Source: Yuukianura sp. NJ FZ-2021 (taxonomy: Eukaryota). From it: a stretch of 64,000 nucleotides of DNA. The translations under genes were made by a program, and so were the position numbers. The DNA lies in contig CM102290.1 in the NCBI GenBank assembly GCA_046563655.1, positions 10,044,001 to 10,108,000 on the forward strand, read 5' to 3'. Below the pieces are notes generated by a model, which saw nothing but the letters and a program-made list of their open reading frames with translations, made no database searches and was not told where the DNA came from. Of this stretch, positions 3,061 to 53,300 are shown piece by piece; the stretch's first letter is position 1, and every line of letters begins with the position of its first letter.

Positions 3061-6000
3061 CTAGAGATCAACTCTGCAAACACGAATTCCAACAAGCAAC
3101 ACTGAACTTGTCCGTCACTTTTTTTTCCAGCGTCACACACTAGATCAGAGGTCAGTGACCTTACAGGTCACGGCAGGAGAGAATTGTCTTCTGGAAAATT
3201 CAGTCTCTCAAACCTGAAAGTTTTATGCAACTTTTATGTGGAATTGAACCGAAGACCACCTTCGTGTTATGTCAAAACTGTCGGTCCGAAGAGTGAACAC
3301 GGACACTTTTTTTTAATCAAACCGCAGCCGTTTCCCCGTGGGGGAACGAACACACGGAAGTAGGAGAAAATCGTAGAACTGTCAAGTAATTAGTTTTGAC
3401 AACACTGAATTTGAGATAAGTGACGCCAATAATACTCTAGACACGAGACGAGGCCACCAAAATGTCAACACTTTGCCATCTAAGTTGTATTAGAATTGGT
3501 CACTAATAGTCCACCCATGTATTGAGAGCTTCTTTTTTGGCTATTGCCGTAACGTGGACTTATCACTGTCGATAGTCACCTTCTGAACACTCTACGCTTT
3601 AATTGTTTTGGTACAATTAGAATGAATTGAAGAAGAGTGTTTGGGCAAGGATTATTAGGAGGGCAGATAGCGTCAAGACTCCAATTATCTTCACACCTCA
3701 AGGTGTCAAGTGGGATTAAGTGGTGGCAGGAACGTCAAAGGCCAAAACATGCTCTGATTCTGACAAACCCAGCACCTAGCTTTTGTCTTGAGTGGTGACT
3801 CTGGAAGTAGTCGTGTCCAAAAGTAGTACTAAAGAGATGCGTGTTGTCGGAGCGTCAGAGACCAACTGACGACGGACGGTGAAGAAGGTGAGGCTAAGTG
3901 TTCCTCTGAGAGTTTAGGTTTTGGGGAAAGTCGGAAGATGAAGATGGGCTTTCACTGTCGTCACCCCGTGGCAGTAGCAAAGGGAGGAAGAGCTCCTTCA
4001 CCTGTAATTAGTTGACACGAGTAACTGAGCCCAGAGTCATGCGGAGGTTTTTTAGGAGGTACACTTTGGTGCAGAATTGACAACTTGTTGTAATCAGGAG
4101 ATGAATCTCAATTTGTGACAACAAAAGGCCGAGTCCCTGCCTCCGAGAGTCTAATTTAAAATGGAGATGCGATGGCAGATGCTGTCGTGGGATCCTGCGA
4201 CTAGGACCACTGACTAGTACTCCAAACAGCAGCCACGGCAAATCCACTTCTTCCCCTGGAAGTTGACCCCATTTAACCCACACACTCTCCAACACTTGCC
4301 TTCCAACAATAAACCACAAACACCAATCCCGCCATTTTCAAAATCCCACAATTACACAACCACCTCCCCTGTCAACAACGTCCTAGTCATGCACGGGAAT
4401 TCCCCGGGTCAACTTACTAACCATTTTTAACTAGCATAAACATTACAAACTAACTTAAAGGACAAACCTACTAACTTGAAATTTAACAAAAACATGATCA
4501 CCCTAACTCTAACCCAATCGGAAGAAAACAAAAATTGAGAGCAGCACTTGAGATTAAACCTTTTCGACTGAAAAGTTGAAACAGAAAAGCAGAAAAATGA
4601 AAATGAGACACTGAAAATGAAAAGAAATCGGAAAACGAAAATGATAACTTGAAAACTAAAGCTGAACCCTGAAAATTTGAAAAATGTGGAGTTGAACCCA
4701 TTAATGTCAGTAGCGCAGATGAGTTGGTAGTGAACCAGAGTCGTTCCAACATATTTCGTTTATGTTTACACAACTTGTGCAACTCAAAAATTGCTTCGAG
4801 TGCAAGGATAGTGCAAAGTCTTAAAATATCCCTGTTATTGTTTGTTCTCAACAGTGTCTCGTCGTATAGATTCTCATCATCCTATCGAAAACATAAATCA
4901 ATTCACCAAACCCTCAATTTCATTCATGAATTTTGACTTTTGACAAGGCTACTTCCACTTCCACTGACACACGAATTCGAAAGAGAAAACGGCGTCTTTT
5001 CAATTTTCTCGTTTAAAAAAGTGGGCCCGGTAGTGCAATTTAGACAGAAGAAAAAAAAACTAAAGGTTAGAATTTTATATAGCTTCACACAAAATTCACT
5101 TTTGCAAGAAAAATCTCCCGCAACGCGAAAAATTCCTTTCCCTAAAATTTTTAAATTCTAAATTCCCGGAGAAAAAGATTGACGGTAAAAATGTTTTCTT
5201 CATTTAATTTCCGAGAAAATCGACTTAATTTTTTTCAGTTTCGAAAACAGTTTTTTTTAGATCATGTCTAAGCCAGGTTCGGGGAGAATTGTTAAGTTTT
5301 GAAAATGGATTTTGAAAAGGCGTTAAGGTGCCGGAATTGTCTGGCTGGTGAGAGACAAGGAATCTGTTTGAAAGGTTTTTTGGGTGGAAGAGCGATTGCC
5401 AAAGTTTTTTGAAAGTGTTGATTTATTCTTTTGGGTTGAAGTTGACTGGAGATTCGCACCTGGTTCCAGGGATGTTCGCTTTGTTTGCTCAACGGTATTG
5501 TAACATACCTCTTCCCCCTCCAAGGTTATACTTTTCAAACAGTACTGTCAGCATCAGCAGCATAAATCCCCCAATCTTCCACAGACTCCACAAGCCGCAC
5601 CATCAAATTATTTCCAGCGAAATGGAGCACCAACCACCTCACTCTTGGAATTCATTGACCACAATCTCCATTCAATCCCACTCTTCGCACCCATGAACCA
5701 CAAAAAAAAAACTATACGCTCCAATTTATTTCATCCCGATTAGTCACTCGTTCTGGAATTTTGAATTTTCCCCTCGAATTTAGGATTTTTTGAATTTGGA
5801 CTTTTTTTTGGTCTGAATTGCCTTAACCATAGGAAGGGAATTGACCTCTGACCTGGTCATAAACCTAAGCGTGTGTGACTCAAGTAATAACTTGAAACAA
5901 AGGAACTGTTGTTGGACATCACAGGAGGAGATCGTAACAGGGTGAAAGTTAGTGGCGTGGTTGTGCTAGAAATAAACAGGATGAATGTAGGCCCTGCCAT

Positions 6001-6376
6001 AGCACTTCAGTAGCAGACTCTGCCACCAAAAATAAACTAGTAATCGCAGAATTCAGACGGGCAGCTCACTTTCCCTCAGAAAATTACGACCGCAACGCTG
6101 CAACAGCTTCTCGCCTCTCGCTGCCTTCAAAAACCCACAAATAAGCATTGGTCAGAGACCTATGCCTTCGCCTCTCTACCAGAGACTGGTTGAAGTAAGG
6201 CCGTCGCAAAATAATGTACCCTGGCCTGACATGACACATTCCTTAAGATAAAGTCATCCGAACAAAATTCTCATTGCAATGGAGTTGAATTTTGATTCAT
6301 AACCGAGGGTGGGTACAAGGAAGCGGCGGCTTTACTTGAACCTGCGGAAGAAAATGGGTACGTACCTTATTAAGCT

Positions 6377-9300
6377 CTACTCCAGCCCAAATCCCTCGGC
6401 ATTGGAAATGGCAATGATGAGTTTCCGTTTCAGAACCTCTTTGGACGGGTATTCTGGCAAAATCAGTTGATTGAAGCAAGTGTGAGCCTCTGGTAAGTTT
6501 TCTTCACGGTCACGCATACGTGAAATCTGAAAACAAACCAACTTTTCTTGAATTTTTCTGTTTTGTCAAAAATGTTATTTTTCGTGCCACTCATTGTCAG
6601 AATAAGATTTATAAGTTACAAACTAACACACCTTGAAGTACATTTCTCCCATCCCACCAACCGGGATTCGATCGCTCCCTGTTGTGAACAGAAGAAACTT
6701 CTTCTGGAGTTCGAGCGGAAGGGACGTGAGAACGGACCAGAAATCTCTGTGGAAAGAACACCATTTTGAATTTCGTAGGATTTCGAACATTAGTCTTCGT
6801 GACTGACGGATTAAAATGGTGTTCTGCCGAAGAGTCACTTACTGAATCACCCTGTCATCAGGTCGATACTCATCGTACTCGGTCACTTTCCGAAGTTCAT
6901 GCAAATCCAGTGTGGGGGATCCACAGACAAGCATCTCCACCTCTTCTGGTCTCAGCATCTGTCAAGGAGGCCAGGATTAGTAGAGACACAAAGAAGCCGT
7001 GGGAGAAGAGGGGCTTAGGCGCCTAATGAAAACTTATTTGAATTTGTTCTTTACGATGAGAGCGTTGGAGGCTGTCACAGAGTGGAATCCAAGGTAGAAG
7101 GCACGGAACTGAGCGTAGATCGCCGTGTTGAGTACCCAGTCCAAGTACAGTCGAACGTACTCGTCACGATTGCTGTTGCTCACCAGAATCTGCTCTCCAT
7201 TTTCTTTCAAATTGTACGTCATGATCCGATCGTACTCTTGAAGAGATGCCTACAATCAGACAAAACACATTCGTCACTCATTTACTCTGCTTATTTTCTC
7301 AAAACAAGCAACTTTTCCAAAACTCCACATTCAAAAGTTCCAGTTTAGGTTAAGTCTTCAATTTTTTGGAAAAACAAAGTTTTTTGTTCTCAAACCTGAA
7401 AAGTTAGACTCATGTCATCCTCGACACATCCTTCGTATTTGAGTAATTCCTTCAGACCGTGAGCCACATCCTAAGAAACAAAAAACGAATTGCTCAAGTT
7501 GAAGTTGACACTTTTGTGCGTGGAAAGTGATCGCAAAAGTGAAAAGGTCGGAATGAAAAATCGCATGATAAAAAGATCACCCACATTAAATGGCCAGATT
7601 TTTTTTTTTCAAAATTTTTAAAATTGCAATTTTTCTGTAACCTTTTTCCCTGCGATTTTTTCAGTTTTAACCAAATTATTCCTATTACATGGAACCCTCT
7701 TGTGTGTTTTTTTTAATTTTACCGGCATGATTTCTGCCAAGTCTTCAATGGATGGATCTCTCGTCACTCCCACTGCAGCACTGTCCAAAGATGGCACCAC
7801 CGGCGGAGACAGCAACTTCCGATAACAAATTGACGGGAAATGCAAATCCAGAATAATCGAGTTGTATACAGCTAAACCCATTAGAACGCCTGGGAAAAAA
7901 TGTATTGTTATATAATTATTTTTAAAACCGTGGTAATCTTTCAAGCAATTACCAATTAGGTTGTACTCTCGCAAGCTGCCTTGCTGTGCCAAACTGAACC
8001 AGTAGCACCGAGAATTCGGATAGTAGACAAACATTCCATATTCAGGCTGCAAAAACACGAAAGAGAAAGTGACCCTGTGTTTTGATCAAAAATTAATTTT
8101 TTAGTGCTAACCTGAAAAATGTCTCGGATCAGAAGCAGAAACCACTCTTTCGTGAGGCCGCCCATATCAAGTCCTGGTTCTCCTACGAATGACACGCGCA
8201 GCTTCTTCTTCAAGTCCTTCTGCTTCGTAGCAATCTACCAAACACAACAAACCAAGATAACGTCACGTTACAGAGACTCAGAACTTGGTTAAAAAAATAC
8301 AAATACTGCGCATGTGTAAAGCTTCCTGGGAACTCACTTCTTTGAGAGAGTCGCCCACCAAGTGATTCCGTCTGACGTGGATGTTGAGGAAGAAAATGTC
8401 GATCTGCGGAGTTTGATGTCGAGCTACTTTAGCCACCAGGGAGCGTCTTGCCACTAGAATCATTTGGTGCTCAGCGTCCTTCGTCAGAATGATGCGTTTC
8501 GCAACAATACTAAGCATGAAGGGATACTGACAAAACTAAAAACAAACAAAAGCCATTTGATTAGTATGTTTTTGGAATTGAATTAAGAATTTGACCTTTG
8601 ACGAGGCAATCTTACCGAAAACTGACCAGCACGCTCGGGACTTGGAGCTTGCCAAGTCCAGTAAGACTGAAACGTAAAAAATTGTTCGGCTCTTAACTCA
8701 TTGGATACAAACTTACCTTCTCATCCAAATAAAAATGTAATGAAAATACTAAGTTGAATAGAATACCTGCATCAAATCAACATGGTCCAGTGCACTGTTG
8801 TAGAATTCGGTGTAGTGGAGAAGGGCCGGATGACCACCATTATTCGCAGCATCTGCAAAAATTGCACACACAGGGAATAACATTTTCAAAAAACGACAAC
8901 CAAGAATGTAAAAAATAGTTTTAAAAATGCTTCGTACTTAGGAGAGCCAGAACTCTGGCAGCAGCAGGAATCCACCATTTGGATTTTGAAAGTGGTGGCA
9001 GTGTTCGATCAGCTGGCGGAAATTGACGAATGGTTACAAACTGAGTCAGTTGACGCACAAGCATGCGAAGACGCCCAACTTCCAACCTACAAAAACCAAA
9101 CGGACATAACTTTGACATTTCTAAATATGAAAATGTAGGAACATTTGGAAGATGTTGACGTCCTTACAGTCTAAACCAGTGCACAAGCATTTGGTGATCA
9201 GTGTTAGGGAGAGAAGTGATGTGTCGCAGGACATGGGCCAACACAGTGTATGACGACTGTGCATTGAATATCGGATTTTGCAAAATCACAAAAAGAGCTC

Positions 9301-11142
9301 GTACTTTATCCTTGGCATACAACCTGAAATTCAAAAAGATGTAGTAAAGAATGCAAAAATTGTGATGCTTTTTTAGTTTTCCTCACTTTCTTTTTTCATC
9401 CAGAAGCGCATTGACAATGGACTTCAGAACAGTTTTCTGGACCACTGATGGCTGAAATTAAAAAGTTCGTTTTTCAAAATTTTTAAAACAAAGTTTAGTT
9501 GAAATCGTGAATTCATTACACTTAGTAACGTAGCTAAAACAATTACCGAGTTTCTAAGCGTATCATTCACAGAGTAAATAAATTCCATGTTCAAATGTGG
9601 ATCCTGTATGAGATAGGCCTGACGATCCATTCCTTCTTCCAGCTCTGTTGACTTGGCCTGTGATAAGGATTTTTTAGTCAAATGTTTATGTATACAAAAA
9701 TAACATAGTATTAAAATTGAAATGTTTTTCATCAGTGTTTGTTAAAACTTTTAAACACTTTCATGTGAGCGTCTTACTCTAAAAGTTGAGCAAATGTCAG
9801 CATAGGACTCGAAAGTTCTTCCGTAGAAGCGCAAAAGCTCTCCATAGTTCCCACTTTGAGTTGCGTGTCTAACAGCTTCCCTGAAACCAAAAGTCTTTTA
9901 CAACCCAGCAACGTTTCAATTAATTAATGAACTAAAATAATTTATTTGACTGTGACCTTACAGGAAATCTTCTCTGTTTGTTTCCTGGTCATTGGTCGTG
10001 TATCGCAAAAGAAGCTGTTCAGCCACTTCACCCAAACCACCATCACTTCCTACTCCCTCTTCACTCATTTGCATCTCGAACCGTGGGTCTCTGTCCTGCA
10101 AAAAAAAATCAGGCCAAGGTCAAAATATAAAAAAAAATGCTGAATGCTGGGTTCGAACCAGTGCTTTCTCCAATCCCTGCCTTACCCGTCACCACTTAGC
10201 AAGCACTTGAAACCTAATGAAATGAGGGAGGAGCTGTGACAATTATTGGTGGAATCCAAAATATTGGGAATTCTCCACGTGATTTAAAAGTGTCAAAAAA
10301 TGGAAAATTTTGAAAATGGAGGGGGAAAATAAATAATTGTATGAATTAGCGACAAAGTTCGCTTGCTCTGGTCCGATTGCACAACTGAACTGGAAGTGCG
10401 AATATGGACATAGGGATGTCATGGGATGGCCTGTTGTCAGTGCCGTTTCCCTGACAACGCCACCCACAACACAACCCAGAAAGTGACCAAAAGTGAAGAA
10501 GAAGTTGGTGAAGAGTCCATTTTTTGAATTGAATTTACAAATGATTGATGAGGAGGAATGACGACGAAAATAAATGTTTGGTGACGAGAAAGCGATCGAT
10601 AGACTCACCTTGGCCAGTCTTGGAAGGGAATTGCAGGACACTGAAGAATCCGGGCGAAACATAATACCGTCAGGAATTCCAACACGGACACCTCCAAGGC
10701 GACCCACGAACAAACCTCCGAGTCCACTGCTTCCACCTCCATTTTCCTAATTTACAACAAACATACATCGCGTGACCTCAAAACAAGCGGCATCAAACTT
10801 TTTCTTAAACTTTCAAATTCAAGAACCCATTTGAATTCTCAACAACTTTTATAAGTTGGAAAAAAAAGCAATGACCTTTGACGTTTTGCTTATGCTTACC
10901 TGAGGAAGTCTCATCTGCTGTATTTGGTCACGTCCATTCGGAGCAGCTCGGATTCGAGCATCATGCTGATTATAGGTGGCTCTGCAGTATGGACACACCA
11001 ACCGTCGTCGTGATTCCAAGCTCCGACCCATGGTCACCGTAACATGACACGACGGACAAGTGATGGATTCACTGCGAGCTGTGTTTGTCACCCCAGAAGC
11101 TCCGCCCCCTCTCACGTCGGAGCCCATCGGATCTTCGGCCAT
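6377..11142 (-). CDS. HECTD2: HECT-domain E3 ubiquitin ligase HECTD2, multi-exon
   Basis: Spliced exons give [90 protein letters not shown] and [11 protein letters not shown]...[10 protein letters not shown] (catalytic Cys codon 6478-6476; stop 6379-6377). The N-terminal exon 11142-10900 carries a CxxC...CxxC motif. The GT-AG junctions I checked are in phase. The start codon is less certain than the HECT part. Confidence 0.9.
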
Positions 11143-11881
11143 CACAAGTGCAGGACGCTGTTGGACAAAATTGTTTTTAAATTCATTTACAAAAAATAGA
11201 TGCTGTTTGCTCAATAAAATAAACTTACGAGGAGGATAAGTCTGGGAAGTGGTGGGAATAGTAATTCCCAATTCCAGGAAGAGGCATCCATGCCCTTTGA
11301 CCCTGATTGACGAAAGCCCTTTAGAATTCAGTGACTGAACATCAGAAGGACTGTCCCCAGTCACTTCTGGAACTCAAATGATGAAGAAGAGACAAGAAGG
11401 GCAGTGGACGTCCAATGTGTTGTCACATCGAGTGTCGCCAAGCCAACTGTAAACTCTCTCGTCTTCAGCTTGCTAAAAATCGATGTTAGGAACCTTGCAT
11501 AACAAATCTATTCTGGACACGAGAAGAGCTGAAAATAAAATATAAACAGGTTGATCGTTCTCCTTGCTTTAATTAATTTCTTGATTTTTTTTAAATAAAA
11601 ATTATTAACTTAACTAACCTATTTTTACCGCTTACTACAGAACCTTACCATTTACTACAACTTACTACAGAAAGTTAGGTATGAAATATTAGGTAGTTTG
11701 GTAGGAAACTAAAGAAACATAGGTTAGTTTGTCAAGCTAACTAACCATAATCAAAGAAAGTTGTTGGGCTAGCAGCTACCCCAACTTTTTATACATTATG
11801 ATTAGTTTAGTTAGTGATTCGGAGTAGCTGAATTAACCTAACCTTAACTGCTTACAACGTCGCTCTACAGTTTTCTTGAAA

Positions 11882-12546
11882 AGGTACGGCAGCAAAGCAT
11901 CAACGGCTTATTCGAATAACAGCTATGAGCTAGCCGCAATGCCAACTACGAGTGCCAGATCGTATCTGCCAATGTGGGACAGATTTTGAAATGGGTGGGG
12001 CCACAACACCGAGAGGCGCCATTTCCCGGCAGAAGAAGTCTATTCCAACACATTGAGTCCTACCAACCACTGTCGCCTAACGACGCAGACCAGCAGAAAA
12101 AAACATCCATTCTGGTACACTGTAGCATTCGATGTTCCGTGACGCAAACTATCCGCCGCAACTAACTCGCTAGGAATCATCGTAATGATTGACCACGAGA
12201 GAGAATCTCCACTCCCAATCGACAGTGGAGGTCCCACGTAGCGAGGCATGACGACGATTCCCATCGAATGAGCTGCGACGAAAGATCGCGACATGGCAAA
12301 TACTTCAATGTAGCATCAAGGATGCTGTCTTCAAGTTGGTTTGAGTTGTGAGCCGAAAGGAATTGGTGGGAAGTCAATGCATCGCAATAGAATGCCACTT
12401 CTTGAAATGACGCTGCCGACGTTGTCACCGCCACCCAAGTCAAAATCAATACCATATTGGTAGTTACGATCCTGCAATCATAGCCGCCATTACGGAGAGC
12501 CGTTAGTCGTTATTCGAACATGCCGCTGATGCTCAGCTCCGTACCT
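11882..12546 (-). ncRNA. Candidate long hairpin RNA: ~330-nt imperfect inverted arms around a 10-nt loop (12214-12223)
   Basis: 11882-12213 aligns with the reverse complement of 12224-12546 along its whole length (e.g. AGGTACGG, TTCGAATAAC, GATCGTA, GATTTTGA, TCTATT, CATTGA, GGAATC, CTCCACT). Mismatches mostly give G:U pairs on the minus strand. There is no transcript evidence. Confidence 0.55.
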
Positions 12547-15500
12547 ATCTCAAGGAAAAGGAAGTGGAATCACAATCGTTCCGCTCCTTCCGCCACCTCA
12601 GAGTAACTTTATGAAGCAACATTTCAAAATACGACGAATTATGTCCAGAGCTGAGCATCAACGCATCCAACAAAAATCATACTTGCTTTTTGTTCGTTTG
12701 GTTAAGCGATTTTGATAATGAAGTTTAAATGACTTCAGTGGCAATGACAACGTGCCGACAATGACCAAAATTCTAAAAGTTTAAACCATAGTCAGACCTA
12801 AGAATTAGCTACTCATAAACACAACAAAGGCTTTGGAATTTTTATGCTCCGTGACTTTAGAACTTGAGGGTTCTCGCGGTGGCTACGCCATGCGCACGCG
12901 TCCCCACAACCAAAACAAGTCCTTTCTCCGTTTTCCCAGTCGAAGTGAAAGTCCCAGCGAAAGTAGTTGTTCTCTTCCCTCCCAAACAGAGCGTGTGAGT
13001 ACTCCCAAAGTCTTGGTTTTTCCAAATAATCTTCCAACTTCTAAAAGTTCAAAGTTCACTGGACAACCCCCAAACTCTCCTCCGCGACCTTGACTCGGTC
13101 CTTCCGGAGTCTTTGACCAGGGCATGAGTGATTCTGGTGACTGGAAATTCTTACAAGGATCTGCAATGGAAAAGGTCAGACTTCCTCATTCCTTGTTTCT
13201 CCGTCACACCCAAAGTCAAGCGACTCTCACCTAAAAACAAATACATAAAAAAACAGAAATTCACATTTCGTTTCAATCCTCTAAAAATCCATAAGCTAAC
13301 AAATCAAAAATTAGGGTTTTGCTTCTCGCGCTGCAAATTAACTTTTCCTTTCAATTCCAGCATGCTTTGAACTGGTGCTAATGAACACAGTCCCTTTGAT
13401 TGTACAGAATTCTTAGAAAGGAGAAGTAGGATCAGGATCGATATCGCTCGCTATAGACCATCTCCTCCAGATCTCTTAATGCATTCCGCCCTTATCCGCC
13501 TCCAGGAAAAACAAAAATCTCAAGACAGTCGTCCCCAATCCCACAATTCCCACTTTCCCTCTCCATTTCGCAATTTTTCTCAATTTCTACTTTTTCCCGG
13601 GGTAACTTGAGACTTTAAACGAACAGGAATGAATGACCGAATAAAATCGACAAAAGAATCACAATGACACAATTAGGAATTCCAGACACTGGTTCTCGTC
13701 TCCATAAAAAGTAGGCAGACAAGAGAACCAGTCAATATTTTGGTAAACAATCACAAGTACATTAGTAAACAAACTCCAAAACTTGTTTTTTTTAACACTT
13801 ACATCCATTTTCAGGAATCAGAAGCGGAATTTAACTAACTTTCTAACTTCGTCCGTATCTAGTATAAACACTTGACGACTCTACAACTGCGAATTTGGAA
13901 TAGGACAACTTTGTAAACAAAACTGAAGATTCAGGCGTTCCAATTTGTTCTACTTTTACTAAAAAAATACATAAAATTTCAACTTTTTGTTCAAACAGAA
14001 ACATCATTTGACCTTGACCTTTTCCGCATCGCTTATTAATAGTTAACTTTCAGCATCAGTCCAACTCCAGAGAGAGTGAGTTAGGTAATCACTTTACGGG
14101 AAAAACAGAAAGAGAAAATATGCCAAAAAATTGCAAACAGTCGTTGTTGGCATTGGAAAGTGTTTGGATGACTTCCTACATTGCAGAACAGCCGCTTACG
14201 CTAATACAGATCACCTACCAACACCGCTACACGCAACATCTGGGTTGAACTTTGTCAAAATACCCTCGCATGACACCAAAGTCAGGCAGAGGAAATTCAA
14301 AACACCTAATTTAAAACTTGTTAAAAAAACTTAAGAATTTTTCTAAATTCACAAGAAACTTGAGCAAGTTTAAAAAATGCTTTTGATAAGCACAATTTAA
14401 ACAAAATTATACTCTGGTGTGTCAAGCGTGTGGTTGGAATGTTGCGTAAGCTGCTGCCAGGCGACGTCAACTACGTTTTACTTTTTCCAGAAGCATATTC
14501 CACACTTGAATTCTCCAGAGAGCGTGTCGAAAAAAAAAACCCGGCCCCGCCCAGTTGTCCACTTCCAGAAAAATTGGACTTTTTAAAATAAGTATTTTTT
14601 TAAACTGTACGCGCTGAAATTGCTATTATAATTTGACACTTGAAAGACTAGCGTCCATCCCTGAAAGATTGGATATTAAAAATAGACATTTGACGCTTTC
14701 TAACCTCTTGTCCACGATAGGTCAATCCCCCTTCTCCTCATTATTCATCCAGACGAAGACGAGCAGCATGAGGTTATGGACACGATTTCATTTTCATTTT
14801 TCTTTATTTCTTGCGGCTTTGATGGGTCCTCGGACGTGGTACTTGGGTTTCAGGAGTCAGATTCCATCCATCACAAAAAATATCGTTGTATGAAGAGCGT
14901 CATAAACTTCCAACTCTCCGGAGTAGTGTAATTATCCAAAGCTAAAGTCGCCTTCTTCCCTCGTCTTTCAAGTGGTAGATGGTTTGGTTCATCTCCTGGA
15001 AATAGTCACAAGCAAAGCAAATCAGAATGGTTCACAGTGAATTCTCGAGTGGTTTCAATTGGATCAAGGTTGCCTCATCTCTTTCTCACAAGGAATCATC
15101 TATCTTCTGCACATGAAAACAATCCGCAACAAAAAACCTTAGCTTCTCTTTCCCCATCGAAATTTTTATAACTTTACGAAATAGAAATGTTTAAGGTTGG
15201 ACAAAAATCTCAAGTACTACCCGCAAAAACATGCGCACAGCAGGGATTTGACATGCGTGAGGTCAACTCTTACCATGACCTCACGCAGGTCATCTGGTCC
15301 AGTCCATATGTCACTGTTCGGCGTCCGATGGCTGAAGACTATCCTATCCATATGCTTCGGGGAGATACGAACCCTACTTTTAGATCTCGTGCTCAAGAAG
15401 GCACAAGGAATCTGAATCTCATTCCTCCGAAAGAGCTCTTAAGCAGTACTGCTAGCTATACCCAATTGAGGACAACCGGGAGCCAGCGTCTTGGAAGCTA

Positions 15501-26188: not shown

Positions 26189-26334
26189 ATTAACTCAATC
26201 AATAATTAATAATAAATACAAGTATTATGACCTGGCGATATCGGTTTGAATCAATCTTTATTCTCATTCAATAAACTTGGTAAACCAGTAGGGTTTACCG
26301 GGTTCCGTTAAGTGTTCCTGTTTACTTGCTTTCC

Positions 26335-27090
<756 letters not shown>

Positions 27091-27211
27091 GCAGTACAGC
27101 AATTTTAACGTTCGATAATCGAACTTTGATTGTATCGGATCCGGTGAGTGAGACAACCGGTCAGATTAACCAAAGCCGCCGTCACCGAACCGATAGTTTC
27201 TCCAAGTTTTT

Positions 27212-28163: not shown

Positions 28164-29361
28164 AAGTTTTTGATTGGAGAAGTTTTTAACTATTTTGCAA
28201 TTTTGCCATTTTGTTATTTTGCAATTCATTTCATTCATTCAATTGCCATTAGGCCATTGTCTACAATTAAAAAGTTGAAATATTGCAGTTTTTCAATTTA
28301 CGGTTGGTTTTGTCTATCAAAAATTAATTAAAAAAATTAATTAATATGTTTATAATTGAGGATATAAGTAAAATATTTTGAGAAAAATATTAAATATTTT
28401 TTACTTTAGTATTTTGCAGATTTGAAATGCCATTACGCCAAAAAAGTACGGTTTTGCAGCCTGGTAATCTGGTAATTGCAAAATCCAATTTAAATGCACC
28501 AACAAAGAAAAGTTCAACACCAATCCACTGTATGTGATTGACTAATTAATTACAAGGTTAAAATTAGTACTGAATAGTAATTAAGAAAATTAACCAATTA
28601 ACTAGAGGTAATTATTTTTTCTAAAAAAGAAGGGCAAATTTGTGGGTTGAGCGACCCGAAACGATAACGCGCGGGTAATTTCAAATCGAAATTTTGTTTT
28701 TGTCTTTCATTTGTTGTTGTTTGTTTTCCTTTCAGTGTTTGCTATTGGTCCAACAAAAAAAAACCCTCTCGTCTGGAGAAAAAGCAAGTCGAAACTTCCA
28801 CTGAACGAATGGAGTGACTGGAAGGGAAGTGAGGCTCCTGGAATTGTGGTGTAAATTAGCAAGTGCCGGTTGATTAATCGATTAATTAGCAGTTGATAGT
28901 TGATAGAAGTAGAGTTACTTGAACTCTACAAGACGAGTACAAGTTGTAGTTAGTAGTTAGCATAATTGATCATCGTTCGTTCGCGTGAAGGAGGCGACGG
29001 TGAAATCGTTATTCACTACTAGTGATTGAATATCCATTTCAATTTCAACTAACTACATTCGATTCCGGTAAGTATGCAAATACATTACTATGCCATTTCT
29101 GGATCTTCAGGAGTCGATTACTTTTGCTAATACTTTATCACGCCGTTTGTGTGACGACGTTTTTATACGTCAATGTCACATTGAAAATGTGTCTGTGAAG
29201 TCCACAGTGTGAGCTGCAATGTGTGGAACATAGCGGGATACTGGATACTTGACGAATAGTAACAAGTTGTTAACAGCAAAAGCCTGGCATTCTAACTTTT
29301 GACTTTATGTTAGCTTTCATCTAGAGCTCATCATCATCGGTGGCAGGGTCCACGCTTCTCA

Positions 29362-41300: not shown

Positions 41301-44300
41301 GTTGAAGTTGAGAAGTATAACTTTTGAGACAGACAGCGGCAGTGACAACATACGCTTCGTTTTTGATAATTTTTGGCAAAAAGTGGTCAAAATAGAATTT
41401 GTAAAGGAAGTGACAGTTTAAACTTTTTTGAACTTGATTAAGCCTTCTTAACATTTGCGACTGTTTGCTCGAACGATGAAAAAAATGCAGAAGTTAAACT
41501 TTGCAAAGTATGAAAAGTTCAGTCTGATTTTAATATTTGGTCTTCTATTTGCTAATACACAAAAAAGCAATGCGAAGAGGACTAAACAGTAAGAATTTAC
41601 ATAACGTTTTCACACTTTGGTTCCATTTCTTACAATCTAGCGTAAATAAATAATTAGGTTTGAATTTTTGGAAACAAAATTTCGAATATTTTTCAAAACA
41701 CTTTATCTAAACTAAGTATTTGTCCTAGTTTTTTCAAGTGGTTTTTAAGATTATAGTTTTCAAATAGCAGCGTTTGAAGGTTTTTTTTTGACACGTTTAA
41801 AAATGACTGGTTTGGTCCCTAGGTTTGTTCTTGCTTGTTTGACTTTTTTGATTGTCATAAAATTTTGTTTTCTTTTCAATCGCTTTTTAAAAAATTTAAA
41901 AGTTGAAAAAGTAAAAGGAAGGAAATTGGTTTAAAATGTTAATCTACTTTAAAGTTAATAGTACTAAAAAGTAGGTAAAGTTAACCTAACGTAATAATTC
42001 TCCCTTAAAGAGTTTAGCGTTTGAATTTTTAAGTGGAAACCTTGTAAATCGCGTATCACAAATTCTCAATTCTGACTGTAATAAGTGCTGATCGTCGTCG
42101 TTTCAGAGTCAATCCAAAAGTTTGCTTTGACATTTTTTGTTCATTTGAGCGTCGAAGAAAATGGCGGTGGAATTGAGGGGAGAGGCCTCTGTTGACAGGA
42201 ATTTGAAGTTTCTGCGGTAGAAGGCACTGTGGGCGGAGTCGTGAGTCGACCAATAGGACGGGGTCGCTGGACACAAAACGTTTTGTTGCGATGTTGTGGG
42301 TTGAAGTTGGTCGGAGAGGGAAATGAATTGAGTTCGGCGTATACGTGGGCTTGGACGTCTTGTGGTTCAGTGTAGTCACACATTTGGGGTGACACGGAGA
42401 GGTGGGTGACCTCTGACCCCTTACCCTGCTGTGCAGCGTTGCTAAGTTCAGAGTAGATGTCGGAGGGGGATCCGTAGTCAGGGCAGAGGGCGGTAGATCG
42501 GGTGGGTTTGGATCGGATTTGAGCATAGCGAGGTGTTGGTATGGCCAGTAGTTGACTTTCTCCGGGGATCAGCGAAGATGACCTTGGGGGAGGGCAGTGG
42601 GTGGTAGTAGAAGTTGATCGTTGAGATTTGACCTTGGAATGCGGGGGATGAGCTTTCGGGAGGACGGTGACGTCGGGAGGAGATGCTGGTGACCTTGGAT
42701 CTTCACTGACGTGGATGAGGTCATAGAGATGGTCAATCGTTTCTTTGGCATCCCAAAACGCCTCTGGATCGCTAAGCTTGTCCCGAAGGCCCTCGATTAC
42801 TTCGTTAGACAGGTCACTTGGAAGAGTCTGTACTCCTTTGTCTTCCATTTCAACGTCTTCAAATAGTGACGACCTTGGGCGTACTAGATTTGCACGAGGT
42901 AGAGCAGGTATCGGCATTTTTCCGTTGGCGGCCATTGGCACTTTTGACCCAGCTGAAAAGAGGCCGCTGTAGCCGTTCTGTGGCGGTGGAGAGTCCCGTC
43001 CTGCGTGAGCATTAAGTCTCGGTCGACCGAGTTCGGTTTTTTCCTGACTGCTTCTGTCTCGACGACAAACGTACACGACGAGAACAATGACCAGGACAAT
43101 AATGATGGCCAGGGCAACCGTGCCGACGAAAATGGCAAGGAGGCGGAGCTTGCCGGTTAATTGCGGAGTTGACAAGACTTCTTCATCAGTATCGTTCACT
43201 GCTTCAAGTTCGTTCAAACAGAGAAAAGTTGCTTCGGAACACAGATCGGGCCATTCGGCAAACGAAACTAGTGTTTTGGAAGTGTCGGAACGACCAAGAC
43301 AACCTGCCCCCTTGGCTGTCGTCAAACATGCGCTGTTGTTCCACAGTTGTTCTTGGAACCAGTCGCTGGATCCGTTCAATGTCACGGACGGAATGAACAA
43401 AGGTGAGCAGTTGCAGGGTTGCAGAATTTCGTTGTCTAGAATTGCTGTAAATGGCGTGGTGGAACTGTGTCCTACTTTTATAAAATCCGTACCTAGGTTA
43501 GAACCCCACCGGTTGCCAATCAGAACTGTCAGATTGAACTGGGCTGAGTGTTGAGTTAGATCCAATCCACCGGATTCGACGGATTCAAAAGAATTATTGA
43601 CGAAAGACAGTTCTGTCCAATCGCGCAGCGTGAGTCCGTTCGTCCGGACGTCCTGGAAGACATTGTTTTCGAAGGTGGCGGAAGGTATGATACCGGACAA
43701 GGCGTGACCTTGAAGTGTACCAACTGTTGAGTCAGTCCAGGTCATGTTGGTTATGCTGGAAGCTATACCTTGTGGGTCAATGTTGTTGATTTGACAGGAT
43801 TCGACGATCCATGAGTCGTTGATGAGGATTTCTTCGTCGAAGGCTTTTGATTCGATGGACGTAACGCGGGAATTTTGAAATAGAATTTGTTGAAGGGTTT
43901 TGCCTTTGAATGCAAGTGAAGAGATGAGCCGGATTTCGGAGTTTAGGAACTGAACAATGTTGAGGCTGGAGGGAAAGGATTTCGTTGGCAAAGTGTCGAT
44001 GGAGACGTTATCGAAGTTCAAATTTCGCGAAATTATTTCTGAAAACAAAATTCAAAAAATTTTAAAGAAGTTTGAACCAGCATTAAATCTAATTTTTGAA
44101 ACTTGTTTATCAGTTTGAAAATAATTTCATTCTGATTTGACTGAAAATGTTTGACTTTTGTGGCGTTTCGGTGTATAATACGCGCGGTATTTATATAAAG
44201 ATCGCAGAAGTTGTAGAATGGAATTCTTTGAAAAACTGATGGGATATTTGTAAATCATAATACAATTTTTTTTCAATGATTTTTTTAAATTAAAAAATTT

Positions 44301-47300
44301 GGAAAACTTACGTGGATTAAGTTCGAATGCAGACTCCATGATAGTTAGGTTTCGGATATTGGACAGGTCAAGGTCAAAATGTGGTCCTGTCATGGGAGAG
44401 AATGCTTGCGGATGAATACGTAGATTTTGACAGTTGTGAATGCGCAGACTCACGCTCATGCTGGGATTGAAATTCTGTCCACTGTCAGTTCCTCGCTGCA
44501 GGTTAATCACCTAAGGAAAATGAAAAATCATTAGGTTAACTCATATGGTTAGGTTAACCTAATTTGGGTTTTAGTCTAAATGTTTCCTTTTCCGTTGGAA
44601 AACCTAATGACGAGCAGTTAATCAGGTTAACTATTTACCAAACGAATTTTAAAATGTAGTTTTCTTTTCAATTTTTGAAATCTGTTTTTTTTTTTTTGTA
44701 ATTTTGGACAGGAAATTTTTTCAATCTCAATTTTTTTTAAATTGAGTACACGCCATTCATGCTGTGGAGCAACACGATTCTAATTTTTTTGATGATCTTC
44801 TCCTCTTCTATGATGAAGATGATATGATGCGTAGAGTGATAAATTGAAAAAAAAATTGAGTTGGCGGCAAACTTTGAATTTCGTGGAGGAAGTGTCCTTT
44901 GTTATTTGAAAATTGTGAAGTGTATTTTGTTGATGGAAGGATAGTTTTGGTCGTGACATGCTCAAACGCACGACAACCGGAAACCACAATTCGGAGTAAT
45001 GAAAATAGAATTGGAGACTTTGTATCACAGTTTCAAACAAACCACATCTTCTGTGTTTTTAGTTTGCCTGCGCACGCGTTCTGCAGCGATGAGTCTTCAT
45101 TGAATCAAAAAGTTAATTTTAGTGCTTGATTTGGAAAAAATATGTTTTGAATTTAGTAATTTTGTTTTCTGTTTTTTTTTTCTTCCTTGGACGCTGTTTA
45201 TGGAATGACACTTCCGGTGTAGTTTGTAAATGAGGTTAAATGGAAGAGAGACGGCGATTGTGGTGGTGAGGAAATGGTTAGGTTTTGCCCTGCAATGTCA
45301 ATGCTCTCCTTCTGTCATTTTTTGATATTTTTCATAAATTGTGTCGGTAGTGAGGAATTGAAGCGTTGAAATTTTTGTTGCGAGAGGATGATTTTTGAAA
45401 TTATTTGAGCGAAAAACAGAGTCACCTTTGTGACTCAAATGAATGAGAAGATTTAGTTTGGCGGAAAATTTTTGCTAGGAAATGTTTTCGGCGGTGATTT
45501 TTTTGCAATTTTGATTTCCACTGGTCTGAAGCAGGAATCAACCGTGCAACATATCTTATTATGAAATGTTGCATGTTGCACATACTCATCTTATATGTTG
45601 CGTGTTCCACATTATCATTTTTTGTTGCTTCGTATGGTTCTACTGCGTGTTGTGATATTGTAGGCTTATGTTTATGATGAAATTGTACGTTGGGTCCGTG
45701 TGTTTTATGTTGGTGCTGTATTTTCCATGTTTATGTTTTATGTTGGTACATATTCTGTAATGTTGCGTATTGTGGTATATTGCTGTATTGGATGTTATAC
45801 GCTAATGTGATACGCTGGTATAGTAGTACATAGAGGTGATAATATCTTGCATATTAGTGTGGTATGTTGTATGCCTATGCTATAAGTTTGTGTTGTATGT
45901 TGTTTGCTTATAGTGTACTATGTTGGTATCGCATACGAGTATGTTATACGCTATCCAACGATATTCCGGCATTACCGTATGTTGTGCTTTTGTATATACC
46001 TATGTTGCATTTGGTTTTGCATGTTTGGTATCTTGTGTTTTATGGCAATGTTGTACATCGGTATTGCATGTTATACATTGTATCAGGTGTTCCAAATATA
46101 ACTATTATCTTTTTTCTCTCTGTGTAACTTCTCCATCTCATCTCTCATCTCACACTGTGGAGTTTTTGGAGCTTATGGGTTTTGTGCACAAAAAGATAAT
46201 AGTTATATTTGGAACACCTGATATAACTGTACAGTGTATGGTGCTTAGGTTCCTTTTGTCACTCGTTATCTACAGTTGAGAGACAGTTATAATGGATTTC
46301 TTACGGAAAATTTATTTAAGTTTAGTTACAAGGATTATTTGCGATTTTGATTGTGTAGGAAGAATTGAGCGGCGTGAAACAATTTGAATTTAGCCGCTCT
46401 AAAAATTCAAAGTGACAAAGATGGAAGTGTGGAAGATTGAAAAGTTGCGCACTGCGTCGTCGAAAGTTGGACATTGTACTTTGTAGGAAGATGATTGTGG
46501 CATTTTAGAATTGTTCTATGCAGTCATCGGAGTGTGGGAAAATTTATGTGCTTTTTCTTATTCTGTATTTTTTCTGTTCGAACAAGACAATTGAAAATTC
46601 TACAAGACAACCGCCTCAGGCATTCTTTTTAGAACAGGGCTTGAGTAAGTTCTTTTGTTCTAAATTTTGGAGAGTCATTTGAACACGGATTTAAGTGACT
46701 AAATAATTTCCATTTTGGAAAACAAGTACCCAGAGGACTTTGGGAGCCTTAAGGCCCATTTTTCGGATAATGAGAATGTAATGGAGTGAAGTGTGAGACT
46801 TAAGGGAGGGATGGGCCCTTCACGTTTGCCTCCAGATAATAAAGGCTTCTTCTTGGGATTAGTGTGCAGTCGCAGAAAAAACAATTTCTAACTGATAATC
46901 TTTGGAACTTATATTTAGGACATTTGTTTTTAAAATTTTAGAAATTAGTAGTGTTGGAGAGAACAGAGGTCAAACTGAACAAGAGAAAGGAGAATTCAGA
47001 GTTGAAAAAGAAAGTTGAAGTTGAAATGACAGTTTGAGCGGGAAATTTAATTTGGGCAAATGCGTGGAGGGTGGTTTATCGTGTGTCGATTGTTGTCTCT
47101 TTTTTGTGTCCTGTGTGTTCTGGTCCAATGGGGGAGGAAGTTAATTGTAGGAATTGTTAGATTAGAATTGGGGTTACAATGAGGAATGAAACCTTAAATT
47201 GTCCCTAGAGAGAGCATGGGTAGTATGGGGATGTTGATGTCAACTTACTTTGTCGCATTTTGTCGAAGTGGGATGTTGGTAAGAGGGAGTAACTACTGCT

Positions 47301-50300
47301 TTTTTTTGGTTTTGAGGGTAATTGAATAGTACGACATTCTGTTTGGTAAGTCTAGCAGGCGACATTGGGCGTTTTCTTGTCCAACATAAGTTGGACCATA
47401 TCCACTTACTCGTACTCCCCTCCTTGTTTCATAAATTTGTGGCTACCCGGCCCTGAACTAAACTAGATTCCACAACTAACCTAATTGGCGACGTTTTCAG
47501 GTTAGGTAGGAAGGTAGACTATCCTAACTAAGCATAAATTAACTTCGTCTAGCCCAACTACCTAACGGAATACGAAATTGATGTATGTTGGTTAGGTCAT
47601 GGAGTAAATTTGTAAACTTATTAGGTATATGGAGTAAATTTGTTAGGTTAGTTTTATGGGGTTGTGTACTTTAATTGTGTTTGTAGAGGAAATGTGTAAG
47701 TGCGAAGTTTGATTTGTTCGATGTGAGCTTGGTATTAGAAAATTTTGTTTTGATTTTGGTTGTTATTAGAGAGGTTGAGAAACTTTGTGAGTTTGGTGTG
47801 ATTCTCATGGCTTTTGATTGTATGTTTTAAGTGTAGAATTTGAAGATTGGGATCGGAGTGTGATATTTTGAGTGAATAATAAATCATTGCAAGTGTTTAT
47901 TGTAGCGGAGTGGAGGAGGATGTGGCTTTTCTGTTATCTGTGCTTCAAAATCCAACAAGAAACTCTGTTGTATGGCAGTTAAGTGATGCAAAGAGTAACA
48001 GAGTTTAGAGATCAATTCTGTAAACTCTGTTTCTTGTGAAAAAGAAAAAATTCATTTTTTTTTCTGAGACGTATTCGCTCTTCTCCACGCTTTCTGCTCA
48101 TTGCTAGGTTTTAGATTACAGTAGTTAGTTGAAGAGAAAAGAAGTTTTAGGGATGCTTAATTTTAATTGTAGTTTAATTAAAGTCTGATGACGTTAATTG
48201 GTGCTATTTTGCTCAAATTGAAAGTGGTTTTGTTTATATTGTGGAGATGAAATCGACAGGGAGAAAAATGGTGAATGGAGTTTTTTCTCTTTTTTCTTGA
48301 GTTGCGATGCACTTGGTTTCTGGTTTATTTCGCTGTCTAGCAAAGGAATCACCAATTTAACAATTCTAAACACTCAACTACATGCATCGAGAACGAGCAG
48401 AAGGGAAAAAAGCAAGGGAAAAGATCGTTTAAGAAAAACGAAAACAAAACAAAGATGCAACTTTTAAGCGGGGTTAGAAACTTTGGGAAGAAGAGCCAAG
48501 AGGCTTAAGAACGAGAGCGGAAAATACGATGCCAGGGTTCGAGTCTCAGCGGGTACACGGGTTTCTCCAGGAGAATTTCTTCTCTTTTCTCTCTTCTCAA
48601 CAAAGTCATGACAAAATAAAGAAATTTTAGGAAGTTTTGAAATCTCTGCGTTTTAAATTTTGATTCAAAAAGGGGACCCTCCCCATCGCTTGTGATGGTT
48701 TACTCTAGATTTTTGGAGTTTTGTGAAAATTATGTTTGTGAATTTTGAAATTTTTTCATTTTTTTTAAATGGGTGCCACCCTTTATCCACCCATTGGGTG
48801 GATGGCGTACTCTGCTGGATAAACCGTATACATGCAGCCTGAATGCATTTTTGAATCTACTCCGTGACAGGCGGAAGATTCATTTGTGAAACTCTATTTT
48901 GGGGTTCCTTTGCGGCTAAACGCTTCAACATTCCTCTCTTCTAACTTTCGTAATTCTATTGGTGTGAAAAGATTTTCAAAACAGTGGGAGGTCTGTTTTG
49001 AATTACAATTTTAGTTTTTTAGAAAATGCGAAAATTTAAAATTTTCGAACCTGATCTGCGGCGTCTTCCTGGCAAATACAGGTGATGAGCATGTGTGAAG
49101 TGTTCACGATAGAGCAGGAACATTCTGGCGTTGTTTCACAAATTTCTTGCGATACGATCCATGTTGTGGTGACACTGTCGTCGTCAAGGTCGCCACTCAC
49201 ATTGGCGACTGCCACTGGCCCGCTAAAAACCAGGGAATTGATGATTAACACAACGATGAACCTGCGTATACGCACCGACGCGCACATGATTCCAAGCACA
49301 TGCATTTCTTAAAAGCCGAATTTTAGTTAACTCTGGCAGAATGTCGAAACATTTTTGAAACTGAAAGCTGGCGCGGCGTTGAACAGTGTTTGCGACGGAA
49401 ACAAAAATTTGTTGATGTAGTTTGAGATTAGTTTGGGGGTTGAAAATCTTGACGCGGTGAGTTTGAATACTTTTGAAATGGCGGAGTTGAACAATTTTGA
49501 AAAATCCATAAAATTATGAAACTGTTTTTGTTGAGTCACGTTGGATTTGAAAAAAAGTGGTTTTTGACGAATGCCAAAATCTGGTTCTTCTCGTTTTTCC
49601 TTTGTTTTTTCCGTGAGTAGAGTCAGAGGACCTTGGATGAGGTTGCTTCTGGGAATGTCATGTTTAATGGAGGACTAAGGTAGCTAATTACCACTTGCAG
49701 CAGATACTCAACTTATTAGATTTTTAGATTTCTAGAACTGAAGTTTTTAAACATTTTTTTTTGGAGCTTATGAGTGTGACTTTAGACTTGAAGTCACAGG
49801 CACTGACTGTCTCCTTCTTGGTTACTGAATGCTGATTGCTGAAGTGAGTGCGTGAGTTTGGAGTGAAACTGACTCAGTTTGTGTTGTTTCCGAAGCTTAA
49901 GGGAGTTGTCTTGGTTGAAGATGGTTGTAAAAAGTGGATTTTGTTGATGGATGAAATAGGAAGGGATGCTGAGAAATGATGACGGAGAATAATCTGATGA
50001 GCTTGTTCTTCAATTTTGAAACACTTTTTTTTGAAATGTGCCAAACTTCCGCTCTCTTCAAGTTCAAAACTGCAGAGAGTGGAGCTGGAAATGTAATTTG
50101 GAAGTCCAAATGGAAGGATAATTAAAGGAGAGCAAAAGTAATTTGGAAGGGGACGTTTTACTTTTTTTTTTTGCTTTTTGAGAGACAGGGAAAAGGTAGG
50201 AATTAAGGGCTACGACCTCCACTTTACTGTGTTGTAAATGCACTTTTTTGAAAGTGCATCAAAACCTTTGTCTGGGAGCCTTTAAGGGAGTCGGCGACTG

Positions 50301-53300
50301 TGGACTGGGAGCCCTTCCATTTTCGGAGACATTGGATATTTCTGTCTGCCGTGGTAATGGAACGGTGTTTGTGTCTGGAACTTTTATGTTGCTACTTTTT
50401 CTAAAGTTTCTGTTGGAGTCACATCACTTTCACTTGGAATACTTGTTCCACGGTTTGAGGTTTGGCGGGAGTTTGAATTTTTTCGGACGTTTCTTTAATC
50501 TCAGAACGTTTGCTCGAATGTTTTGAAGTTTTAAGTTTTGTCTCAATTTCAAAACCTGTTGGATGTTTTTCGTAACAGAATTTTCTCGCGTTTTTTATTT
50601 GATACAGAGTCGTTTTTCAGCCGTGTTTCGGTTCTGAAACGGCTGTGCCTTTCCCTTCGGACGGTTTTCGGTTTTCGTTGTTCAAGTTGAAAAGGCGTTG
50701 TATGAGCAGGTGAATAAGTCCGGACTTTGCGAAATGTTGAAACAGAATTGAGAAATCGCGATGTGTGTTGCATGTGAATTCGATAGAGAGACCTTGTGGA
50801 CGCAGTTACTACTTTCAAAAAATTGTTTTAGTATGCGTTTGATGTTGCGAATAAAAGTTGACACAATGAACAATTAAAAGTGTAGGCAAAATTCTTTGTT
50901 CTTTAGGAAGAAAACAATGGGTTGCTGGAGTTCAGTTACTCCGATTTTTCTTTGGCACACAATTAGAACAAACACATTGGGATTGGAAAACAATGGAGCT
51001 TTTTAGTCTCTTAGAACGTATCGTCAGCTGAGTCACAATTAAGTGGAACTTAAAAGTTAAAGTAATTAACTTGAAGACAATTAAGTCAAGTGTGGTAGTG
51101 GTGGGGTGATGAGGACTTGAGAGGAGCCGACAGGGAGTCGGCGCAGTGGTACATGGACATTTAGTCTATGGTTAGGCTAAGAATTAAGGTTCTGGTTAGG
51201 TTTTGCGATTAGGTTAGGGTTTTAGGCTAACCTAATCTGCGACTATGGACTGGTACGTGTGAGTTGGTTGATGTCTGAGTAAATACTGGAAGTCGTTCTG
51301 AGTTAAGTTGCTGATTGTCGTTTTTGTTTGGGAGGGGGTAGATTTTTTGAAGGAAGTTGAAGCCAAGTGGCGTTGTTTGTTGGTTGGTCTTTTGGTATGT
51401 TGGAACAGGAGCAGTTAAGTTCCCCATAACCTACGTATGCTTTTACATCTCTGAAGAATAAGATATGTTCGACTATAGGTTGTGGAGATGCAGAAGATCT
51501 CTGAATGAACCCACCTCCGGCCCCACCAAACAAACCCACCAAAGTTACATCACTTTGGAACACAAAAGATTCCAAGATCATCTTCCTCCTTACTTCTCGC
51601 TTCTCTTTTCGTCATCCGCTAAAAGTGCTTTGGTTTGCTCAACTCTTGCTTTTCCGGCTTCCGAGATACAAATGCAAGGCAAGGATTTGAGATTTCATAG
51701 AAGTTGAACCAAATTTTTTGAAAGATGAGAACAATTTGGAGTTGCGCAAACAGATTTTTGGAATGTGTCGTTTTTCGGTGTGGTTTGAGGACTATTTTTT
51801 TAAGGCTAATATTTGCGGAGGTTTAATTTTTTTTTTGTCACGTTTTAGACGTTTGTTGGACGTTTTGGAATTTGTAGCGTTTTGGAATTTTTGATGGTTT
51901 CATTCAGTTTTGAACAAGTTTTTGTTGATGTTTTTTTTTTTGGAAATAATGGTTCATTTGTTGTGGCCCTTGGCACAGTACCCAGACCCTTAATATGTCG
52001 TCGTTCGTCGACATGGGAACGACACGGAAAATAGTTCCTAGGGATTAAGTACCCTCTCTCCCTCCCTGGGAAAACAAAGACCCGGAGTCCTGTTACATGG
52101 AATTCTGTAGAAGAGAAGGTACTGGGAACTCCAAGGGATCGGTTGAACTAAGGATCTGTTGCATCCGTTGTAGCCATTAACGTAACCGCCGTAATCACGC
52201 ATCGTCAGTGGCTAAAAGAGGTGGAATAATGTAGCCACCGCTTCCAAGTTTGATTACAAGCCTAACTACTTCAACCAAAATCTACTGTAACCATTATAAA
52301 CACTCCATGGTTACAAATACAACTGCAACGGTTACAATAGGTAGTTACTTCAGATGTAATTTTTACTTTAACCAAGAGTTCGGAAGCTTGGACTCTTCCG
52401 AAGGGTCTGATGAAGTGCCCTCCCACACCTAAGTACTCGCCTTGGCAGGGTCGTTTGAGGGTACTTTTGAATTTTGTGCTTCAAAAGTGAATGAAGTAAT
52501 CTAGGTAGAAAGAGAGCTCAAATTGCAAATTTTTTGTTGTTCCGGTTTTTACTGGAAAGGAACAAGGAAAAACTACAATGCATAGCAATTTTTTTTTTTT
52601 TCTAATTTTGTGAATGATTTTTATGGTTTCAGGTACAAGAGTTATGATCTAAAGAGAAAAATTGAAATTTAGTATTTTGACGTGAGCAGGTACCAAGGTT
52701 TTTGAAAAAAAAATAAGTTATGGTTAGTTAGGTTGGCTGATTTTTTTGATGATCGAATTTGTATTGGTATTTTTGTATGTTGAGCGTTTTGCTTTTCTTG
52801 AGCGTTTGTTGAGAAATGTGCTGAGTTGAGTAATAAGATGAAGATATGCCTTTATGCCTCTGAAGAAGGACGGGATTAAGGATGATTTTGATGATTGGAG
52901 ATGCATTGTTCCTTTGTCAGATGCAATTCCTTTGTTGAGGGTTGTGAGAAATGAACTTGTAGAAAAGCAGATGGTTGATATACCTGTCACCTCGATTTAG
53001 TTTAATTGATTAACATATGAAATGTATTTAAATATATTATCTAATCGATTACTTTTCTCTTTTTTGTGTTTGCCGTCCAACAGGGAGAACTCGAAGGAAC
53101 GTGAATTCATTGCAGATTTTATTGGAAGAACGCCGAATTCGAGTGGAGAGCGATTGGCGAATTGGATCCAACCGGAGTCATTTGTGGATCCGGAGAAGTG
53201 TCAGGTAATGGGCGTGGCAAAATTTCAAATTTCATGTGCAAAATTTCAAGTTTCATTGCAAGATTTCAAGCTTCATGTTAAAAATTTTGTGCTCGACGTG

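Follow-up and report, generated by a model that had tools for sequence, protein, structure and literature searches.

We describe a long minus-strand hairpin at positions 11871-12558 of a 64,000-nt stretch of the Yuukianura sp. NJ FZ-2021 genome (assembly GCA_046563655.1, contig CM102290.1; the whole stretch is called the window), which is G000:C8:10044001-10108000 of a compact 98.7-Mb genome in 22 contigs. The data establish the hairpin's structure, its single copy, its strand bias, the Argonaute origin of its outer arms and a perfect site that selects between Argonaute paralogues. On balance, and judging from sequence, we favour the interpretation that this is a hairpin RNA (hpRNA)-like locus whose small interfering RNA (siRNA) would target two Argonaute duplicates, on contigs C2 and C3, while sparing a third, intact AGO2-like gene on contig C8.

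A single-copy hairpin with strand-biased mismatches

We folded both strands of all eleven stretches that an earlier sequence-only reading had listed as long fold-backs, and calculated z scores against dinucleotide shuffles. The stretch 11882-12546, with true limits at 11871-12558, stood out (z = -18.8 on the plus strand and -21.6 on the minus strand). Using an aligner that scores G:U and A.C pairs equally, with 100 shuffles per element, its inverted-repeat score was 320 compared to a shuffle mean of 32, and was reached in 0 of 100 shuffles. The hairpin is laid out as follows.

11871-12558, minus strand: RNA-type hairpin, unbranched and single-copy, with ~345 columns per arm and a 4-nt loop at 12217-12220
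12224-12558, minus strand: 5′ arm (passenger side), in sense orientation to Argonaute mRNA
11871-12213, minus strand: 3′ arm (guide side), in antisense orientation to Argonaute mRNA

The minus strand folds into one stem of 274 nested pairs, 245 of them with probabilities above 0.9, and the longest uninterrupted helix has 13 pairs. An unbiased alignment of the arms contains 238 Watson-Crick pairs in 331 columns, together with 37 minus-strand G:U pairs, 13 plus-strand G:U pairs (A.C on the minus strand) and 43 other mismatches. The 37:13 split departs from symmetry (P = 0.0009) and from the local base skew (P = 0.002-0.047 across five flank definitions). The arms have diverged by 28%, while the stem is still in register with mostly 1x1 mismatches, and the arm mismatches show no three-base periodicity. 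From the G:U asymmetry and the local skew, we infer that the hairpin is probably transcribed from the minus strand.

Genome DNA searches of limited sensitivity found no second copy, and three patterns returned no further copy of the hairpin. An Rfam scan of the window gave 0 matches at the gathering threshold, and a pattern scan of metagenomes gave no match. A long DNA inverted repeat is also a feature of foldback transposons and MITEs (miniature inverted-repeat transposable elements), but this hairpin differs in being gene-derived and in its 4-nt spacer, and we rejected such an identity because no dispersed copies were found, the arms are not near-identical and the mismatches are strand-asymmetric. 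We also sampled long inverted repeats in 664 kb of the 98.7 Mb (the window and 60 stretches of 10 kb, 8 of which flank it). Among the 19 repeats scoring at least 200, 17 were strand-symmetric and one MITE-like repeat was skewed 20:7 (P = 0.019), leaving the 11871-12558 hairpin as the sole strong asymmetry. Two further candidates were discarded: a repeat with 16:0 G:U pairs (L027), which is a short tandem array, and a hairpin at 46.08-46.22 kb (z ~ -8), which is a repeat with 3 copies.

Argonaute origin of the outer arms

A 25-nt pattern taken from a well-conserved stretch of the arms (control hits: 0) matches two other genomic sites, both located in the N-domain exon of Argonaute genes that encode ArgoL1, PAZ, ArgoL2 and Piwi domains. 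The homologous exons belong to AGO2-like genes at G000:C2:2.81 Mb and C3:6.955 Mb, and the homology covers the outer 120-135 bases of each arm.

11875-11995, plus strand: left-arm homology to the AGO2-like N-domain exon (nhmmer E = 0.003)
12436-12569, minus strand: right-arm homology to the same exon, extending ~10 nt past the stem (nhmmer E = 0.002)
11996-12435, no strand assigned: inner 200 nt per arm and loop, with weak, partly inconsistent matches to the same exon

Searches in each direction agree. A three-exon profile run on 464 kb found only the two arms (genome-scaled E = 0.002 and 0.003), and a two-arm profile run on 61 fetched loci (582 kb) rather than genome-wide found only the C2 (E = 1.6e-6) and C3 (E = 8e-4) paralogues. 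A query with the Argonaute protein matches the right arm at 12418-12567 (genome-wide E = 0.0035). PIWI-clade loci and AGO1 showed no match to the arms. When alignments were anchored on the matched block, the 75 nt beside it, from either arm to either target, aligned better than in any of 5000 shuffles. Together, these sequence comparisons indicate that the outer arms derive from an AGO2-like N-domain exon.

The inner arms are less clear. Anchored to the exon, their alignment yields P = 0.03 for C2 and 0.25 for both C3 and C8, and their local matches (5 and 3 of 300 shuffles as good) sit on diagonals ~60 nt apart. We attribute to chance a 20/21 match between an inner arm and a Polinton-like polymerase gene (L102), as well as three 2-mismatch matches, all of which lack extended homology. 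In the polymerase locus itself (G000:C1:4.61 Mb), the Polinton-like DNA polymerase B frame is interrupted by a single internal stop. The synonymous divergence between C2 and C3 is ~0.45 and the distance between the arms is ~0.35; therefore, the hairpin is not recent.

A retained guide-sized site

The antisense arm contains a perfect match to C2 over 11896-11917 (22 nt), of which 18 nt also match C3.

11896-11918, minus strand: putative guide siRNA in its presumed register, with U at 11918 as the 5′ end
12511-12533, minus strand: partner strand of the block, with 3 differences from the target (two G:U and one central A.A mismatch)

A guide beginning at 11918 would pair perfectly at positions 2-23 with C2 and at positions 2-19 with C3. 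Its predicted pairing energy is -36.7 kcal/mol for C2, out of a possible -37.1 kcal/mol, compared to -14.3 kcal/mol for C8, and neither the intact C8 paralogue nor AGO1 has a 21-mer site with fewer than 4.5 mismatches. The putative guide has a 5′ U, an unpaired position 1 and a central mismatch in its duplex. The arms differ from each other 3 times inside the 25-nt pattern, and both genes side with the antisense arm at all 3.

Identity over the homologous region is 73/120, falling to ~52% outside the retained site. A 22-nt run amid such identity has a permutation P of ~2e-4, and stratifying for codon position and for conservation among the paralogues gives the same value, which is optimistic because the same block was used to find the target.

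Argonaute, Dicer and host genes

We fetched 17 Argonaute/Piwi loci (L083-L099), an expanded family, and classified them by sequence inspection. They comprise one conserved AGO1, identified by its motifs, three divergent AGO-clade genes and 13 genes that look PIWI-clade. The best named relative of the three divergent genes is Argonaute-2, at 27% identity. Within this group, the C8 gene appears intact in the exons examined and is distinct from AGO1. Two Dicers are present, one Dicer-1-like and the other called Dicer-2 by exclusion only. The second Dicer and the sole intact AGO2-like gene are ~10 kb apart (G000:C8:14.652-14.667 Mb; L135, L085). Three of the PIWI-clade loci, at 11.6-11.8 Mb of C8, are near-identical.

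The hairpin lies within a likely host gene on its own strand.

6380-13231, minus strand: likely host transcription unit, a HECT-domain ligase gene with Pfam HECT matches in three exons (6380-7249)

We take this gene to be HECTD2-like. Based on a splice-motif scan and the G+T skew, the hairpin probably resides between 5′ exons at ~13155-13231 and 11229-11530, in a probable 1.6-kb intron. G+T is enriched on sense strands here, and up to ~17 kb this skew is in favour of the minus strand.

Proposed mechanism and its alternatives

In the mechanism that we favour, the 5′ region of the HECT ligase gene would have received a copied fragment of an AGO2-like gene, and this copy would have become a fold-back. 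The hairpin would be transcribed on the minus strand together with its host, with G:U pairs holding the 345-column stem, and Dicer would cut the stem into ~22-nt RNAs. One RNA from the antisense arm would then direct the intact C8 AGO2-like protein to cleave the C2 and C3 mRNAs. Selection would have kept the guide site, while the rest drifted.

Several observations weigh against this mechanism. The most skewed flank brings the G:U bias to only P = 0.047. With free local alignment after deletion of the block, just 1 of the 4 arm-target pairs is significant. The two arms are equally close to the gene outside the block (10 versus 10), compared to 13 versus 10 overall. Both targets are damaged: frameshifts (at least 3) and a stop disable the C3 paralogue, and the N/L1 exon of the C2 paralogue is interrupted by a 303-nt MITE-bearing insertion. 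No canonical splice excises the C2 insertion cleanly, and in-frame joins lose coding sequence or need poor sites. The downstream exons of C2 are open, with what we take to be the catalytic motifs. As C2 and C3 are both broken in the assembly, the hairpin locus may still be active, be losing its activity or be a relic.

Variation adds to these points. Variants come from runs X5 (another organism or sample) and X1, with X5 contigs covering the right arm only. Among the 16 pieces listed, the X5 right arm has 7 differences in 447 nt, compared to 28 in ~1810 nt of flanks. Of the 7 listed stem variants from X5 and X1, 2 change G:C to G:U, 2 fold better and 3 break pairs. Variation in these runs gives no sign of current constraint.

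The alternative that survives best is neutral: a piece of an Argonaute pseudogene would have undergone inverted duplication and be decaying, a transcription-linked mutation bias in the host intron would produce the G:U excess, and the 22-nt match would survive by luck within a conserved coding motif. We consider it less likely than the favoured mechanism. The minus-strand G+T skew extends across 1-17 kb, U is in excess in the non-G:U mismatches too, variation in X5 is not reduced, both targets are dead and the block was ascertained by search. However, the skew predicts a G:U to A.C ratio of 1.1-1.6, whereas the observed ratio is 2.8, and a neutral origin would also have to account for the stratified permutation result and for a stem that stays in register at its present arm divergence.

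Alternatively, the element could be a plant- or cnidarian-like, target-derived microRNA precursor, whereby one duplex near the stem base is precisely excised and the rest is leftover stem. Bilaterian microRNA precursors measure ~60-80 nt, and this stem is several times longer; there is also no Rfam match. Just one small-RNA-sized site has been kept, with the 5′ U, unpaired position 1 and central duplex mismatch noted above, and the homology extends beyond the site, which is the signature used in PMC1790633 and PMC7713132. According to PMC7713132, however, this route was lost in bilaterians, and we regard it as improbable here.

Even less probable is an action in cis on the HECT ligase pre-mRNA, as an editing substrate or by shortening the intron by 690 nt, with the Argonaute origin being incidental. 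Such an action would agree with the sense-strand position in a probable 1.6-kb 5′ intron and with pairing kept along the whole stem, including the part without a clear Argonaute match. It leaves the perfect block on the antisense arm unexplained, and there are no such stems in the ten other intronic candidates.

Survey of the other proposed fold-backs

The other ten proposed elements have best-strand folding z scores from -0.04 to -3.7. For comparison, we folded 49 background tiles of 300 nt, one per 1200 nt of the first 58 kb of the window, with 12 shuffles each. Best-strand z was below -2 in 8 of the 49 tiles and below -3 in 4, one of which overlaps the 11871-12558 hairpin, and the mean was -0.5, a slight general folding excess. 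Measured against shuffled controls, the ten elements thus resemble background, and the 11882-12546 stretch alone lies far beyond it.

Inverted-repeat scores lead to a similar picture. Elements 15208, 19752 and 51965 scored 35-42, with 2 of 100 shuffles as good in each case, and the remaining seven scored at chance (6-86 of 100 shuffles). Refolding for nesting depth took in 6 of the 10 weak elements; here, 15208, 19752 and 51965 had z scores of -2.3 to -3.2 and branched structures with nesting depths of 38-57, below their own shuffle means of 55-64. Element 52752-52996 has 17 versus 1 G:U pairs, yet its z is -1.5 on both strands. Among the weak elements, G:U pairs are in excess on whichever strand is G+T-rich, in line with base skew. 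One of the eleven fold-backs is real, and the rest are mostly chance folding. The statement that the elements share no sequence holds on comparison, and the analogy to hpRNA loci fits 11871-12558 well, even though its Argonaute origin had been missed, but does not extend to the other ten.

It is therefore very improbable that the genome uses long, G:U-biased intronic duplexes systematically, as had been suggested: the slight folding excess of the tiles and the three elements at P ~ 0.02 speak for such use, but 10 of 11 elements lie within background and only 1 of the 19 long repeats in 664 kb is a strongly asymmetric stem.

Two of the listed stretches have features of their own. A perfect 16-bp hairpin with a 10-nt loop lies at 15249-15292, and 19752-20175, in an NDRG intron, is the best weak fold (z = -3.2 to -3.7), with several medium helices on the plus strand.

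Relation to known systems

The closest counterparts are the Drosophila hpRNA loci (hpRNA1, Nmy/Tmy, Dsim-hp58 and hp88), which, according to PMC10317233 and PMC12697358, are likewise long inverted repeats from a protein-coding gene, distant from the target, whose complementarity may be one siRNA long. They may use an existing transcription unit, and their targets are often duplicated genes. PMC10317233 states that hpRNAs derive from their own targets, with matches ranging from one siRNA to long regions, and PMC12697358 annotates hpRNAs by abundant, Dicer-2-dependent 21-22-nt arm reads. In the 11871-12558 element, we find a long duplex-forming inverted repeat, arms homologous to a gene family (in the outer third) and an siRNA-sized antisense match. 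Unlike the Drosophila loci, it is known from sequence alone, in a non-drosophilid arthropod, and is probably in an intron of a coding gene; its source and putative target is an Argonaute of the siRNA pathway, which was not found among described targets. The examined passages of PMC12697358 describe AGO2 expansions and contain no Argonaute-targeting hpRNA. In 6 supplements of PMC10317233, the term 'AGO2' occurred in the review file only, which is a weak test, since genes may be given there as numbers.

For plants and cnidarians, PMC1790633 and PMC7713132, respectively, describe target-derived MIRNA genes that arose by inverted duplication. As here, the arms of Arabidopsis MIR161/MIR163 and of the Nematostella precursors resemble the target beyond the site, and the site is best kept; unlike them, the present hairpin has a bilaterian host and a much longer stem. 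Plant miR168 (AGO1) and miR403 (AGO2/AGO3) are also small RNAs aimed at Argonaute mRNAs with near-full complementarity (PMC4300679 and PMC1790633), but these are conserved, whereas the present hairpin is Argonaute-made, seems to be lineage-specific and distinguishes one paralogue from another. PMC5521735 reports Argonaute2 duplication in wingless hexapods. The literature searched, which covers few subscription papers, yielded no animal hairpin that is both derived from and aimed at Argonaute.

Other features of the window and genome

Pfam matches in the window comprise a G-protein-coupled receptor, the minus-strand HECT ligase, an NDRG-family gene, ALG11, a HIT gene and an RCC1/filamin gene, presumably MYCBP2-like. 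A large intron of the plus-strand RCC1/filamin gene seems to enclose a minus-strand membrane-protein gene with a repeat-like ectodomain (42141-49400).

The insertion in the C2 exon (L083:4258-4560; G000:C2:2.812 Mb) has a 9-nt repeat at both ends and a ~220-bp MITE inside, whose family has 215 pattern hits. At window position 11602, run X5 has a loose end resembling the terminus of this MITE. The MITE at 27209-28166 has 193-bp arms with nested inner repeats and symmetric mismatches (8:9), with relatives in L015 and L020. A 143-bp foldback repeat at 46081-46223 (37-bp arms, z ~ -8), absent from the earlier list, has two more copies at 94-99% identity and adjoins a G/T-rich degenerate tract at ~45540-46060. 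On each side, the window is bordered by tandem arrays of a palindromic unit (L005:3169-5034, L007:4718-9254 and L002). The TAACCT/AGGTTA motif occurs 46 times in the window, in non-coding patches, compared to 29 +/- 5 in shuffles, with clusters near 11600-11850, 16000-16900, 44500, 47500 and 51200.

Significance

In arthropods, AGO2 duplicates frequently appear and disappear, and hpRNAs are best known for suppressing selfish genes in fruit flies. We tentatively suggest that an Argonaute-made hairpin may let one AGO2 silence its own duplicates, possibly selfish or harmful copies that have since decayed. The prediction is sharp: one 22-nt RNA and one cut site. If true, hpRNA-type loci would reach well beyond Drosophila, AGO2 turnover and hpRNA silencing would be tied together, and the siRNA pathway would be able to tune its own dosage or weed out its own duplicates, as happens in plants through miR168 and miR403.

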